DNA from: Terriglobia bacterium
Lineage (GTDB): Bacteria > Acidobacteriota > Terriglobia > UBA7540 > JAPUME01
DNA length: 64,000 bases
Assembly: GCA_965222885.1 (NCBI GenBank)
Contig: OZ244973.1
Coordinates: 1,841,940-1,905,939, forward strand
Reading direction: 5' to 3'
Each line of letters begins with the position of its first letter. Position 1 is the first letter of the stretch. The translations under genes were made by a program, and so were the position numbers. Shown piece after piece: positions 2,134 to 8,349 of this stretch. The notes beneath the pieces are model-generated. The model did not search any database. It had not been told where the DNA came from and saw only the letters and a list, made by a program, of their open reading frames with translations.

Positions 2134-3042
2134 TTAGGTCCAGTTCGAAAGTGAGGAATGGGTTGAATTATCGCCGCCGTCGTGGCTGTGGGAAAGGGGA
2201 AAACTCGAAGAGTTTTCCAAGGTCGCAGAGCGACCGGCTTTTCCACAGCTCGTTTCACCCGCCATCCGAAACAGTTCGGGACTGAGAAATCCGAGCGAAC
2301 TGTGCGGGCGGACCGTGTTGTAGTGGACGCGCCATGCCTCGATGGTGCGCCGGGCATCGGCGAGATACAGAAACCAGTGTTCGTTCGGGCACGCATCCCG
2401 GAACTTGCCGTTGAAGCTCTCTACCAGCGCGTTCTGGATCGGCTTGCCCGGCTGAATGAACCGCAATGTCACGCCGGTTCGTTGAGACCAGAGGTGCATC
2501 GCCTTGCTGGTGAACTCCGGGCCGTTGTCGGTGACGATCGCTTCCGGCCGGGAGCGATCCAGCATGACTCGATCCAGGAGTCGACTGACGCGTTCCCCGG
2601 TGATCGAGATGTCGACGATCTGCCCGATGCATTCCCGGCTGTAATCGTCCACGACGTTCAGCACGCGGAATCGGCGCCCCGTGGCCAGTTGATCGGACAC
2701 GAAGTCCATGGACCAACGTTGGTTAGCCTCCTCCGGTGTCGGCATCGGAACCCGGTTCCGTGCCAATAGGCGTTTCCGTCGTTTCCGCCTGACCTGGAGT
2801 TTCTCTTCTCGGTAGATTCGATACGTCTTCTTCTCGTTCACAACCAACCCCTCAGCTTTCAACATCCCGTGCAGCAGCTCGTATCCATAACGCGGATACT
2901 CGGCCGCCAACTGCTTCAGGCGTTCTCGAAGCACCTCGTCGTCCTCACGACAAGACGAATGTCGAGCCACCGACCGGTGGATCCCAACGAGTCGGCAGGC
3001 CCGCCGCTGACTCAACATCCCGAGCCCGATCACGTGGTCCAC
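2134..3042 (-). CDS. IS3 transposase OrfB (DDE integrase core), probably expressed by -1 frameshift
   Basis: WSMDF, TDNGPEF, VESFNG, YNTVRPHSSLG motifs; A-run at the end of orfA. Confidence 0.93.
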   Translation of the reverse strand: MDHVIGLGMLSQRRACRLVGIHRSVARHSSCREDDEVLRERLKQLAAEYPRYGYELLHGMLKAEGLVVNEKKTYRIYREEKLQVRRKRRKRLLARNRVPMPTPEEANQRWSMDFVSDQLATGRRFRVLNVVDDYSRECIGQIVDISITGERVSRLLDRVMLDRSRPEAIVTDNGPEFTSKAMHLWSQRTGVTLRFIQPGKPIQNALVESFNGKFRDACPNEHWFLYLADARRTIEAWRVHYNTVRPHSSLGFLSPELFRMAGETSCGKAGRSATLENSSSFPLSHSHDGGDNSTHSSLSNWT

Positions 3043-3065: not shown

Positions 3066-3332
3066 TTACCAGTTTTTTGACAGCAGTTCCTTCAGGGCCG
3101 CGTTATCCAGATGCGCATCGGCCAGCAGTTGCTTCAGCTTCCGGTTCTCAGCCTCGAGCTGCTTCAGCTTCCTCGCCTCCGATACCTGCATCCCGCCGTA
3201 CTTGGACCGCCATCGATACAAGGTGTGCTCCGAGATCCCGTGCTTCCGGCAGATCTCCTGCTTCTTGGCCCCGGCCTCGGACTCCTTCAGGATTCCGATG
3301 ATCTGTTCTTCCGTGAATCGCTTCCGCTTCAT
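3066..3332 (-). CDS. IS3 transposase OrfA (HTH)
   Basis: MKRKRFTEEQIIGILKE...LEAENRKLKQLLAD...KELLSKNW; GGAGGAG RBS. Confidence 0.93.
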   Translation of the reverse strand: MKRKRFTEEQIIGILKESEAGAKKQEICRKHGISEHTLYRWRSKYGGMQVSEARKLKQLEAENRKLKQLLADAHLDNAALKELLSKNW

Positions 3333-3574
3333 GGTGAGTTCTCCTCCTCCGTTTTACCGGAAAACTCACTCTCGAAGTGGACCGTTTTATGGGGGGAAGG
3401 TCAGGAAGGCCCCCACTATCCGGCTTCTCCCAGTCTTCCGGTTTGAAAGCCCGTCCGTTGATGAGGTCGCATAGATCGCCAATCGGCACCAACGGCCACT
3501 TCGGGTCGATGGGGACGTGGGGGCGGTAGTTGTCGATGACGGCGCGCGCGCCGTCGATGACCTTCTGGTAGCCC

Positions 3575-3626
3575 TCGATTTCGGCGACGATCTCCTGCTG
3601 CACCTCCAGCGGCGGCAGAGGAATTT
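3575..3626. repeat. 52-bp direct repeat, copy B (HsdS conserved region)
   Basis: 49/52 identical to 1739-1790. Confidence 0.85.
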
Positions 3627-5370
3627 CGTAATCTTTCAATTTCGAGAAATGACGTTGATAGCCAGTGTTTTCCAATGGCATAACACGCAGAACGTGATAC
3701 AAAAACCGAGGGTCAACAGTGTCAATTGTACTGAGAATTTTTATACCATCTGCCCCTTGAGCAAAGGGAGTTTCAATTAGTTTCACTGTACATGTGTGAT
3801 CGCCAAATATAACAAGGGGTTTGCTTGGTTGAATCAATATAGATTCGTCATTAGTCCACCCCGCAATTTCTTTCTGCGATTGGTCAATGATGGGAAACTG
3901 TCCAGTTTTGGCGAATGCGGTCTTTTGTATCTTTACCGGAGGAGTGATAGTTTCAATCAGAGTTCCAATCTTCGACCAAGTATATGGCGTGGATTGACGC
4001 GCATTTTCCCGGTATCTCTCTCCGCTCAGGTTGTAATCACCCTTCGCGGCAATCTTCCCCTTCTCGACGATCAGCCCCAATGTCGGCTGGAAGTCGTCCA
4101 GCGGCTCTCTCGCTCGCAGCCGTCGCAGGTATTCGCCAATTTCGGCATGGGCCGCTGGCAGGTCATTCCTGTCGATGGGCCGCCGCTGGGCGCCCAGGTC
4201 GAAGCCGTCGTTTGCGATCTTGAAGAAGCCGATGCGGTCGGTTCTCTTCGCCAGGGCCTTGTCGAGGATCAGAATCGAGGTCTTGACGCCGGAGTAGGGA
4301 TTGAACACCCCTGCCGGAAGCGAGACCACGGCCACGAGAAATTCTTCGACCAGCATCTTGCGCAGTTGCCGATGTGCCGTCTGGCTCTGAAAGATGATGC
4401 CCTCGGGCACGATAATGCCGGCGCGGCCCGAAGGGGTCAGGTGCTCGGCCATGTAGTCCACGAACAGCACCTCGCTCCGTTTGGACTGCACCGAGAAGCG
4501 GTTGTGCGGCCGGATGCCGCCCTTGGGCGACATGAACGGCGGGTTGGCGAGGATCACGTCCGCGTGCTCGTTCCAGCGCTCCTCGCTGGTGAGCGTGTCG
4601 TACTCGAAGACGTGCGGCTGGGCGAAGCCGTGCAGGTACAGGTTCACCAGCGACAGGCGCACCATGTCGGGTGAGATGTCATAGCCCTTGAAGTTGGCGG
4701 CGAGCTTGCCTTTTTCGTCGTGCGTGAGCGTACTGTGCCCCTGGTCGTCGGTATTGGCCGCGAGGATGTGCTTGTAGGAAGAAATCAGGAACCCGGCGGT
4801 GCCGCAGGCCGGGTCGAGCACCCTTTCGTCCTTCTGGGGATCGATAACGGCGACGATGAAGTCTATGACGTGGCGCGGGGTGCGGAACTGCCCGGCGTCG
4901 CCCTGCGAGCCGAGCACGGACAGCAGGTACTCGAAGGCGTCGCCGAGGCGTTCGGAGTGGTCGTAGGTGAACTCGTCGATGACCTTGAGGAAGGCGCGCA
5001 GGGTCTCCGGGTCGCGATATGGCAGATAGGCGTTGTTGAAGATGTCGCGGAAAAGCCGCGGGATGCCGGGGTTCTCCGGCATCTTGGCGATGGCCTCGGC
5101 GTAGAGGTTCAGGGTCTCGTGTCCGCCCAGGCCGGCGCGCATCAGCCTGGCCCAGCCGTAGCGGGCGAACTCGCCGGCGAAGAAGCGGCGCTTGCCGCCC
5201 AACTCCTCGCTCCCCGCGTCGATGTCGTCCATGAACTTGTAGATCAGCGCAATGGTGATCTGCTCGACCTGGCTCTTGGGGTCGGGCACCTTGCCGACCA
5301 GAATGTCGCGGGCGGTATCGATGCGGCGTCTGGTGTCTGCGTCCAGCATGGGATTCCCTCTATGGTATCA

Positions 5371-5397
5371 GCCACAAAAAGCACAAAAGTCACAAAA
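5371..5397 (+). repeat. Left periodic inverted repeat flanking the GxxExxY gene
   Basis: GCCACAAAA-AGCACAAAA-GTCACAAAA (three 9-mers); inverse of 5781-5806. Confidence 0.8.
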
Positions 5398-5768
5398 TGA
5401 GTTGTTTTGATTTCGAGTCTTGCTGACCCGAAGTTCATCAGCATGGCGTCGCGTTGACCGGATGCGCGGAGATAGCCCAGCACCTGCGCGGTATGTTCGG
5501 GGGCTGGCGCCTTGCAGGCTTTAAGTCCAAGGATGAGGCAGTTTTCCACGAACAAATCAGCGAAGTAGTCGCCCAGGACCGCGCCGTCCTCATCTCGCAC
5601 CTGCAGGGGTTTTTGCTGCTCGACAGCCAGGCCGATCTTCCTCAGACGGTGGGCCATCCCGTTTTCGTAAACCTTCTCGAGATGCCCGTTCCGGAGGCAG
5701 GCATGCAGGTCGAAGGCCGTCTGGCGGATTCGATCACACCAAGCCCGGATGCGTTGTTCGTCTCTCAT
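5390..5768 (-). CDS. GxxExxY protein (PD-(D/E)XK nuclease-like), probably damaged
   Basis: GHLEKVY, YFADLFVE, QVLGYL and MNFG motifs. Expected ELK reads GLK. One extra A near 5405-5408 bypasses the apparent natural end EIKQLIL*. Confidence 0.85.
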
Positions 5769-5780
5769 TATTTTGATCTC

Positions 5781-5806
5781 TTTGTATTTTTTGTGCTTCT
5801 TGTGGC
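5781..5806 (-). repeat. Right periodic inverted repeat flanking the GxxExxY gene
   Basis: Reverse complement is GCCACAAGA-AGCACAAAA-AATACAAA. Confidence 0.8.
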
Positions 5807-5813
5807 CATTGCT

Positions 5814-8349
5814 TCAGGCGGCGAACTGGTTCAAGGAGACGTAATCCTTGACGTATTCCGGGATGAGAGCGCGGTACTTCTCCGGCACCGCGCGGAAGTC
5901 GGCGGTGGAAAAAGACGGGTTGGTGGCGAGGTCGGTAAAGCGCTTGCTCTCGATGATGTCGCGGAACTGGTCGCTGGTGGCATAGGCCTTGAAATAGTTC
6001 CTGATGGCCGGGATGGCGCCGGCCTCCTCGGGCTTGTAATCGGCGACGAACTTGGCGAATTCCTCTTCCAGCAGCTCGTCCTTGGACTTGAAGCCGGGGA
6101 TGAGGTCGAAGACCTTTTCCAGGATCTCACGCAAGGTGAGGCGGCGGTCCACGGCGGCGGCCCGGCGCAGCTTGTCGAGGTTGTAGTATTCCTCGGGTTT
6201 GTCGAAAACTTCACGGTTGACGTAGTCGATCACGCGGTCCCACTGTCCGGCTGCGACAGCTTTGGCGATGGTTTCGTCCTCGCGCACCGTGTCCGCGAAG
6301 CGGTCAAAGAACATGCGATCGATCTTCATTCCCTCAGGGCCGATCTTCTCCTCCTGGATGCTTGCGAGAATGTCCTGACCCAGGTGTTCGTAGGCGCCGT
6401 TGAGCTTGACCGGCCCTGTGCCGGTATCGTCATCGACGTTGCCCATTGCGGACTTCGGTAGCTGCAAAACCTCATCGTAGTTGAACTCGGTTTCGAAGTA
6501 TTCGCAGTTGGCGAAGAAATCAAAGAGCTTGAACGCAGTCTTCTGCGCCTCGGTGATGCTGTCCTTGCGGCTGCCGTCCAAAAGCTGGTCCAGAAAGTCG
6601 TGCGTGCGGGTGCCGCGCCCCTTGATCTGGACGAAATCGGTGGGTGAGAAGATGGGGCGGAACAGGCCGAGATTCAGGATATCGGTGCAGTCGTAGCCGG
6701 TGGTCATCATGCCGACCGTCACGCAGACGCGCGCCTTGCTGGTCCGGTAGTCGGGCCGGAAGTTACCCGAACCGAGCAGCTTGTTGTGGGCGAAGTTGAT
6801 GGTGAACTGCTGGGCATCCGCAATCTGCGATGTCACCTGCACCGCGAAGTCGGACTGGTACTTGCCGGGAAACATGCGATCGGCGATCTGATTGAAGGTC
6901 TGCGCGAGCTTGGCCGCGTGCTTCTGGCTGACGGCAAAGACGATGGACTTGCCGGTCTCGCCGCTGATCGGGTCACGCAGCGCGTTCGCAAGAAAGGTCT
7001 TGCAGAAGAGTTGGTTGGTGGCCTGGGAGAAGAAGCGCTTCTCGAACTGGCGCTGCTGGTAGGTTTCCTCTTGATCCTCGCCCGACGCGTCGGTGAACGA
7101 GACGATGAATCCCCGTTCGGATAAGAGCCGGGTGGTCACTTCCGTGCGGGCATCCACTACGGTGGGGTTGATCAGGAATCCGTCTTTCACGCCATCGAGC
7201 AGCGAATAGCGAAAGGTGGGCTGTCCGCTCTCGCATCCGAAAGTGCGGTAGGTGTCGAGAAGGAGTCGCCGTTCGGCCTCGCGTGGGTCGCGCGTGGTGG
7301 TGCCGGGCTTGCCGGTGCCCTTCAAATAGTCGCGGGGGGTCGCAGTCAGACCGAGCTTGTAGCCCACGAAGAATTCGAATACCGCGCGGGCGTTGCCGCC
7401 AATCGAGCGGTGCGCCTCGTCGGAGATCACCAGATCGAAGTCCGTGGGAGAGAAGAGCCGCTGATACTTGTTGTTGAACAACAGGGATTGGACGGTGGTG
7501 ACGACGATTTCGGCATGCCGCCAGTCATCGCGGTTCTCTTTGTAAATGACCGTCCGAAAGTCCGCCGAGAGCAGGGTGGTAAAGACCTTGCGAGCCTGGT
7601 CTTCCAGTTCCAGCCGGTCCACCAGGAAGAGCACGCGGCCCGCATTGCCCGAGCGGAGGAACAGCTTGATAACGGCGGCGGCGGTGAGTGTCTTGCCGGT
7701 GCCGGTCGCCATCTCGAAGAGAAAGCGGTCATGGCCGTTCTTCACGGCTAGCTGCAGGGCATGGATTGCTTTGAGCTGGATAGGAGCGCAGGAAGCGCAG
7801 CTTGTTGGCCTGCATGAAGCCGGGCCGCTCGGCTTGGTTCTGCCAGGCCGCTTCGGAGGCATAGCTTGGCCGCTGGGTCAGGACGATGTAGTCGCCGCCG
7901 ACCCGTTCCTCGATCAGGTGCTGGGGGTTGGGCGTGACCTTGCGGTAGCCGATCACCGAATCCGGCGTCGGGAACGAGGTGATGATGTAGGGATTGCCGC
8001 GTTCCAGATCCCAGAAGTAGTGCAGATTGCCGTTCGAAAGGATGATGAAGCGGCAATTCTGCGAACGGGCATATTTGCGGGCCTGTTCCTTGCCGGTGAG
8101 CGGGTCGATCTTCTCTGATTTGGCTTCCAGAACGATAAAGGGAAACCCGGTGGCATCGAGAAGAAGGAAGTCGATATAGCCCGTAGCGGCCTTCTCGAAG
8201 TCGTTGCCCAGGGCGTCGAGGTCGGACGTCTTGATCGTGACGCTCGGTTCAAGGCAGATGTTGGCGAGCTTGTTCCCCTCGGCGAAGAAGCGCCACCCGG
8301 CTGCTTCGAGCAGTTTATTGATCTTGATGCGTGCGGACGCCTCGTTCAT
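5814..8349 (-). pseudogene. hsdR: Type I restriction endonuclease subunit R (nuclease + SF2 helicase), split by a frameshift near 7778
   Basis: N-part IDFLL...VLEAK nuclease motif; C-part MATGTGKT and DEAHRS. Deleting one C gives ...RFLRSYQLKAIHAL... Confidence 0.88.

Follow-up and report, generated by a model that had tools for sequence, protein, structure and literature searches.

REPIN/RAYT systems consist of doublets of repetitive extragenic palindromic (REP) sequences that form hairpins, together with a REP-associated tyrosine transposase (RAYT) (PMC3116915, PMC3337134). The intervening sequences (IVS) of 23S rRNA are open reading frames (ORFs) enclosed by a terminal stem of 28 bp that RNase III cuts, and they are regarded as selfish, sporadically distributed, and without a known means of movement (PMC4990558). 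Here, we analyzed a 64,000-nucleotide stretch of contig OZ244973.1 (positions 1,841,940 to 1,905,939) from the Terriglobia bacterium assembly GCA_965222885.1, referred to below as the window. In it, a 436-bp unit lies in the spacer of a type I restriction-modification (R-M) operon and holds, between inverted arrays of short tandem repeats, an ORF of the GxxExxY/PDDEXK_3 family. The function of this family is given as “Unknown” in a 2012 survey of the PD-(D/E)XK superfamily (PMC3424549). We identify the unit, by comparison with its homologues, as a decayed copy of a conserved gene-plus-repeat cassette that is widespread in many bacterial phyla and appears to behave like mobile DNA.

REPIN/RAYT is the closest known logic for this cassette and the 23S IVS its closest match in anatomy. 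In REPIN/RAYT as in the cassette, cognate short palindromic repeats lie on either side of an enzyme gene, and tens to hundreds of further copies of them are scattered through intergenic DNA, for the most part as inverted doublets that form hairpins; for the cassette, this abundance is a property of relatives, the window's own genome having 0 arrays. In both, repeat type covaries with enzyme lineage and repeat populations can outlast the gene. The enzymes differ, however: RAYTs are HUH Y1 (IS200-like) transposases, whereas the cassette encodes a PD-(D/E)XK nuclease of ∼125 amino acids (aa). RAYT-associated arms are single palindromes, whereas cassette arms are tandem arrays of 8- to 9-nt units, and the cassette gene, unlike that of RAYTs, is often multicopy (up to 11 per genome) and sits within operon spacers. 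What bears on its possible movement here are allelic states that differ between organisms. The 23S IVS (S23p/four-helix-bundle ORFs) share with the cassette a small ORF in terminal inverted repeats that can form a long closing stem (PMC4990558). The window unit, however, lies between protein genes, none of the fetched cassette loci matches rRNA, the ORF belongs to another family, the arm core is conserved across phyla, and nothing points to a pairing constraint specific to RNA. Miniature inverted-repeat transposable elements and transposons with terminal inverted repeats share those repeats, short gene-less derivatives, and insertion polymorphism, but the cassette has no DDE or other known transposase and no visible target-site duplication, and its ends are iterated short units.

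The initial annotation had taken the window unit for a candidate minimal mobile element whose repeats should recur around homologous genes, and they do. We counted flank pairs as inverted repeats at an alignment score of at least 30 and used displaced flank pairs as controls. Among 61 related genomes, 40 had GxxExxY matches and 31 loci had enough flank; inverted flanks enclosed the gene at 25 of the 31 and at 0 of 178 controls (24 of 30 without L015, which comes from an unpublished genome). A cross-phylum set, drawn from one genome per species by scanning with the family alignment, gave 80 loci, in which at least 16 named phyla are represented, including Acidobacteriota, Chloroflexota, Planctomycetota, Bacteroidota, Pseudomonadota, and Verrucomicrobiota. 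Inverted flanks were found at 55 of these and at 0 of 290 controls. Altogether, 80 of the 111 loci other than the window had them, compared to 0 of 468 controls.

The arms of relatives are tandem 8- to 9-nt units, as in ACCACAGAG-GCACAGAG-ACACAGAG, and share the core CRCNRAG. At least one two-unit CRCNRAG array lies within 170 nt of the gene at 93 of 112 loci. The dominant layout, forward upstream and reverse downstream so that the core points inward at both ends, occurs in pure form at 48 loci and with extra arrays at 17 others; the background was 0 forward and 3 reverse arrays in 211 control windows. Canonical arrays are present on both sides at 64 loci, with three units on each side at 37 of them. 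Successive cores are separated by 1 to 2 nt in 208 of 239 cases and by at most 4 nt in the rest, and the commonest lead-in to the core is TCAC. This variable spacing fits recognition of the units one by one on a nucleic acid that is flexible and possibly single stranded. The period of 9 bp first described thus holds for the window; as a family rule it gives way to a norm of 8 to 9 nt with variable spacers. From these alignments, the cassette is a predicted PD-(D/E)XK gene of ∼125 aa within inverted arrays, typically of three 8- to 9-nt units, with CRCNRAG reading inward.

In the window, the 5′ arm in gene sense (5781 to 5806, minus strand) consists of three tandem 9-nt units, read on the minus strand as GCCACAAGA AGCACAAAA AATACAAA, and starts 7 nt past the hsdR stop. 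The 3′ arm (5371 to 5396, minus strand) is its inverted copy, with the plus-strand reading GCCACAAAA AGCACAAAA GTCACAAA, and ends 21 nt ahead of the methylase start codon. A repeat search recovered the two arms as 26 nt each, 85% complementary, with 384 nt between them, and also found three direct units spaced at 9 nt in 5370 to 5397. The outer 18 nt of the arms are identical at 17 of 18 positions, and the flanks align with a score of 32, whereas 100 shuffles averaged 14.9 and never exceeded 23. When the arm 18-mers were searched with up to 2 mismatches against the whole 4,036,827-base genome, the partner arm was the only match. The core heptamers are CACAAGA, CACAAAA, and TACAAAG in one arm and CACAAAA three times in the other, a variant with 9-nt units and an ACAARA-type core that is divergent from the family. 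An Rfam search of 5000 to 6200 returned only a chance snoRNA match (E = 0.57).

The gene remnant between the arms (5393 to 5768, minus strand; profile hidden Markov model match 5403 to 5738) is the sole gene inside the unit, as had been proposed, and the sole family member in its genome. It scores 92.8 bits against PF13366 (cutoff, 22) and 102.1 bits against TIGR04256 (cutoff, 35), compared to 140 to 158 bits for intact relatives, and retains the GxxExxY signature as G28-H-L-E31-K-V-Y34. At codon 81 (5526 to 5528, minus strand), which aligns with the catalytic Glu of the ExK motif, the window has GGA (Gly), although D71 is retained; the Glu is kept in 19 of 20 aligned proteins, and in the same alignment the window protein also deviates from the near-invariant IIGA and LGPG stretches. 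The ORF has no stop of its own, and its frame reads on to 5244 inside the methylase gene, giving 174 aa.

At codon 122 (5403 to 5405, minus strand), right after the conserved LEIK, comparison with related contigs points to an extra base at 5404. These contigs, at least 80% alike and from other organisms in mixed communities of four public runs, leave this base out at depths of 204.9 of 229.1 (X1), 484.6 of 492.9 (X3), 25.4 of 25.4 (X5), and 476.3 of 476.3 (X6), which supports the reading of a frameshift relative to nearly all of them. With the extra base removed, the frame would stop at the TGA at 5390 to 5392, inside the 3′ arm. The initial annotation had called this a dead copy (Glu to Gly, one extra A) whose natural stop falls inside a repeat, and had seen no target-site duplication; these observations stand, as does the enclosure by three-unit inverted repeats. 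It had the labels of the two neighboring R-M genes exchanged, however, and the strand of the GxxExxY gene needed correction to minus.

The nearest relative on the protein tree is a gene of genome G055 that occupies the same place in an orthologous R-M locus and has an adjacent hairpin built from GGACAGAAT and GGACAGGAT units. The two form a sister pair, with a very long branch to the window copy (2.04); they are 41% identical over 104 residues, whereas the HsdR proteins are 72 to 73% identical across two matched pieces. Contigs in the four runs also join 5397 to 5593 or 5662 with “CGAAT” between, and these joints may be partial alignments of other GxxExxY alleles.

The arrays, as judged by their distribution, are specific to the GxxExxY gene family. 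CRCNRAG arrays were found at 0 of 30 loci with four-helix-bundle genes and at 0 of 20 loci with Y1 transposases in five array-rich genomes. The initial annotation had suggested that repeats should covary with protein phylogeny, and unit type does cluster: a 100-protein tree shows 29 changes of unit class, whereas 500 shuffles of the labels averaged 40.8 and never gave fewer than 35, and a well-supported clade with NFG...LEYKRF C termini has CRCAGAT units in all 6 of its members. This is weak evidence for coevolution because relatives share unit labels by descent.

Y1 transposases were considered as mobilizers of the arrays and ruled out by the count of 0 of 20. Many Y1 transposase genes in array-rich genomes (L220 to L239) are flanked by other palindromes, several containing GTAGCC, such as GTAGCCCACGGC...GCCGTGGG, which are distinct from the CRCNRAG arrays. 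We take these GTAGCC palindromes to resemble classical RAYT-associated REPs.

Arrays are far more numerous than genes. The 61 relatives have 2,288 triple arrays for 99 gene matches, and in a set of 401 genomes across the phylum there are 9,837 arrays for 404 gene matches; 150 of the 401 have the gene, in up to 11 copies, and one or more arrays are found in 240. At least 10 arrays are present in 101 of the 150 gene-bearing genomes, as opposed to 20 of the 251 gene-less ones. The median is 29 arrays with the gene and 0 without it (Spearman 0.65), and among the relatives 23.5 for the 40 gene-bearing genomes and 5 for the other 21 (rho = 0.575), statistics that are uncorrected for relatedness, depend on one regular expression for the array counts, and take in the unpublished genomes G014, G039, G049, G084, G109, and G212.

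The largest array population among the relatives is that of G044, with 307 arrays compared to 3 for a reversed control pattern. Among the first 100 of these listed, 76 form 38 convergent pairs, 21 of which have a loop of exactly 22 nt. A 360-nt alignment of ten G044 copies reveals a near-identical core of ∼150 to 170 bp, in both orientations and with unrelated flanks. This core is an extended imperfect palindrome centered on the arrays. Dispersed copies so nearly identical indicate recent multiplication. The G044 copies (L188 to L217) also have outer inverted segments, GTGAAAAAAT... and CACGGGCG..., and some are nested in a further repeat. Solo repeat pairs, for which the initial annotation had suggested a scan of the genome, are abundant in relatives, with none in the window's genome itself.

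Two spacers provide evidence of insertion polymorphism. Nine orthologous R-M loci, window included, could be compared at the hsdR-hsdM spacer, where an empty-site allele had been predicted. In one (L186) the spacer is 20 nt and empty, in another (L181) it is 66 nt with a single arm-like remnant, and in the window and G055 it is filled by the GxxExxY gene. The others have different passengers: KilA-N (L183, L187), ORF6N (L185), Fic (L184), and a four-helix-bundle protein with a suffix domain (L182). Contigs from four runs likewise join 5343 to 5351 directly with 5818 to 5820, with 13 to 19 other letters between; the joint of 5349 to 5818, for instance, is present in X1, X3, and X6, with 3, 2, and 1 contigs, respectively. 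X6 also has one joint of 5403 to 5788, which would correspond to an allele with the arms alone.

At the recX-alaS spacer (L150 to L179), 30 relatives were examined and recX was found in 28. A GxxExxY cassette is present in three, one of them truncated, and at one more locus that is cut by a contig end; the copy of L151 is decayed, as is that of the window. One or several solo CRCNRAG hairpins occupy the spacer in three relatives. In 11, it has a four-helix-bundle gene between GAATTAT-type heptamer arms (2 broken; nine intact ORFs confirmed as TIGR02436), and in four there are heptamer remnants alone, including L166 from an unpublished genome. Four have 0 to 112 nt without such repeats, and three have other content. 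From these alignments, empty, arms-only, and filled alleles exist at the hsdR-hsdM and recX-alaS spacers. The recX-alaS spacer appears as a hot spot that holds either cassette type, solo hairpins, or nothing.

The protein is consistent with a nuclease. The AlphaFold model of an intact member has a PD-(D/E)XK fold (predicted local distance difference test score, 94.5), and its VIA-align Z scores are 8.1 (BpuSI nuclease domain), 7.6 (Cas4 SSO0001), and 6.3 (Hjc), where values below 8 may reflect a merely common arrangement. Foldseek matched it best to Cas4, lambda exonuclease, and Hjc at E values of 0.017 to 0.1, with no match in the PDB at E ≤ 0.001, and a sequence search of solved structures yielded nothing significant (best E, 0.087). 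The predicted model thus shares a fold with minimal PD-(D/E)XK nucleases such as Hjc resolvases, Cas4, and restriction-enzyme nuclease domains, the likeness being at fold level only. Phage records gave no tblastn match at 1e-5 with one intact homologue as the query. Plasmid records gave 8 matches. The TIGRFAMs notes for the family reportedly mention paralogous expansion.

We would put at about even the chance that the GxxExxY nuclease acts on the arrays and drives their spread, in a manner analogous to REPIN/RAYT with a PD-(D/E)XK enzyme. The nuclease would recognize the repeated core in the arms; gene-less arm-loop-arm′ hairpins would be nonautonomous copies multiplying in intergenic DNA; and the gene-bearing copy would be carried inside one such hairpin, landing in codirectional operon spacers. 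Movement could proceed by cut-and-copy via single-stranded hairpins or by homing into solo hairpins, with the arms serving as homology. The initial annotation had already proposed that the protein acts on the iterated ends and that the unit spreads; this interpretation is partly supported, and the action on the arms and the movement are conclusions that we infer from comparative data.

Several observations weigh against a mobilizing nuclease. In the window itself, canonical CRCNRAG is absent from the units, in which the final G is mostly A (the locus, L001, is classed as “none”); its genome has 0 triple CRCNRAG arrays, and no target-site duplication is visible at 5366 to 5370 and 5807 to 5811. 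Gene and arrays also come apart. At least 20 arrays are present in 16 of the 251 gene-less genomes, among them the 100% complete G135 with 91, and at least 10 in 7 of the 21 gene-less relatives; G010, without the gene, has 72 arrays and one identical 23-mer at no fewer than 9 places. Conversely, 24 of the 150 gene-bearing genomes, the window's included, have 0 or 1 array, and the limits on the co-occurrence statistics given above count here too. Many cassettes share a position across genera, next to alaS, mcm, purB, or dapD-like genes, so they are often old and vertically inherited. Cassettes are strongly co-oriented with their operons, running with both neighbors at 61 of the 101 loci that have both and against both at 9, by a crude longest-frame rule for assigning neighbors, and this would fit an RNA-level role as well. 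Our search of the literature outside subscription-only papers found only incidental mentions of GxxExxY and no paper on what the GxxExxY/PDDEXK_3 family does.

Among the alternatives, the one that survives best is an RNA-level cassette resembling the 23S IVS, which we consider unlikely. The arms would pair in the polycistronic transcript and a host double-strand RNase would cut the stem, releasing the message of the small ORF and sparing the host operon, and the protein would not be a mobilizing enzyme. The closing stem does form in both the minimum free energy and the centroid folds of the sense RNA, with a z-score of −3.5 and 0 of 100 shuffles folding as well. The co-orientation just described and the stem-enclosed, RNase III-cut ORFs of known IVS are in keeping with it, as is the same gene-between-inverted-arrays layout at four-helix-bundle genes (18 of 30 loci compared to 0 of 179 controls). 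Several results, however, oppose it. Over 868 aligned positions at 25 loci there is no sense-strand G-U bias (25 sense-wobble, 23 antisense-wobble, and 59 transversion differences). Mirrored units are no more alike than nonmirrored ones (118 of 176 compared to 228 of 361), with no position-specific covariation between them (67% compared to 63 to 65%). A stem alone would not need the cross-phylum conservation of the core, solo hairpins occur in both orientations, and none of the fetched loci is in rRNA. The lack of a G-U excess, the equal likeness of unmirrored units, and the conserved core together disfavor a pure RNA-stem role.

It is rather improbable, in our estimate, that the hairpins are a domesticated host system, that is, REP-like structural or regulatory elements (terminators, mRNA stabilizers, or protein-binding sites) without present-day mobility, serviced by GxxExxY as a host nuclease or binding protein. 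Domestication has been argued for RAYTs as well (PMC5581495). Many cassettes with intact ORFs at conserved positions across genera, and arrays that persist in gene-less genomes, would suit such a system. The near-identical dispersed copies in G044 speak for recent multiplication instead, and a host function would sit poorly with one spacer being empty, solo, or filled among close relatives, with up to 11 gene copies per genome, and with decayed copies such as those of the window and L151.

That the gene is an accessory or defense component of the type I R-M operon, with the repeats as operon regulatory sites, is scarcely credible: hsdR and the methylase gene do border it, in the window as in the G055 orthologue, and orthologous spacers carry the other small passengers named above, but housekeeping genes (alaS, methylmalonyl-CoA mutase, purB, and others) are the neighbors at most of the 112 loci, and orthologous R-M operons work with an empty spacer of 13 to 20 nt.

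Beyond the GxxExxY cassette, relatives have up to 22 matches per genome to four-helix-bundle genes (L039 to L068; TIGR02436, the 23S rRNA IVS protein family). These lie between inverted tandem arrays of 7-nt units such as AGGGATT, TCAGTTT, GGGGTTC, AGCCATC, GACAGTT, and GAATTAT; the loci include L040, from an unpublished genome, and the layout is shared by the recX-alaS members L152, L155, L161, L163, L164, and L168 to L171. A broader proposal, which we advance tentatively and lean somewhat against, is that GxxExxY proteins may be the mobilizing nucleases of an unrecognized cross-phylum superfamily of hairpin repeats, that the four-helix-bundle heptamer arrays may be a parallel second superfamily, and that together they may constitute a new minimal class of mobile DNA. 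If true, a class defined by a small ORF inside a tandem-repeat hairpin would explain how 23S rRNA intervening sequences arose. The same class might, we presume, explain the short tandem heptamer (STRR) repeats of cyanobacteria; in the STRR and heptanucleotide literature we found no paper tying those repeats to these genes. The literature searched, which excluded subscription-only papers and database comment fields, likewise contained no earlier description of the link between gene and repeat.

The window unit sits in an operon-like row of minus-strand genes: hsdR, GxxExxY, methylase, and an IS3 transposase. Upstream of it, the EcoAI-like hsdR (5814 to 8349, minus strand) is split into two overlapping frames, 7729 to 8349 and 5814 to 7862, with profile matches to HSDR_N (frame 8349 to 7729) and to the ResIII helicase (frame 7862 to 5814). 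The frames overlap at 7729 to 7862, and we read a frameshift near residue 200 because the orthologue in G055 is uninterrupted over 859 aa. Downstream, profile matches identify a 733-aa fusion of an N6 DNA methylase with a specificity domain (3148 to 5349, minus strand), followed directly by an IS3-family transposase ORF (rve, HTH_21; 2134 to 3042, minus strand). An SDH-type ClpP-like serine protease ORF (401 to 1381) marks the left edge of the island. About 1.1 kb to the left of the window start lies the only four-helix-bundle gene of the genome (L069, G000:C1:1840485-1840811), which has an in-frame TAA, sits between inverted GAATTAC and GAATTAG heptamers, and shares the island with the dead GxxExxY copy. 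Three other genomes belong to the same family as the window's, and all three lack GxxExxY genes, four-helix-bundle genes, and arrays. Because these genomes have neither the two genes nor the arrays, the island was probably imported horizontally.

Read as a cassette, the unit would account for the broken ORF in the decaying R-M island of the window. The large and widespread GxxExxY/PDDEXK_3 family is now tied to a specific conserved DNA motif that is present in tens to hundreds of copies per genome (∼9,800 arrays in 401 genomes), and this tie provides a concrete candidate substrate, namely, (CRCNRAG)3 arrays and the hairpins that they form. The motif also gives genome annotation a marker for a repeat family that at present carries no label. 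The four-helix-bundle parallel bears on the old question of where 23S rRNA intervening sequences come from. If the nuclease does move the repeats, the cassette would represent a second, unrelated REPIN-like system and a very small mobile element that is neither DDE nor HUH.

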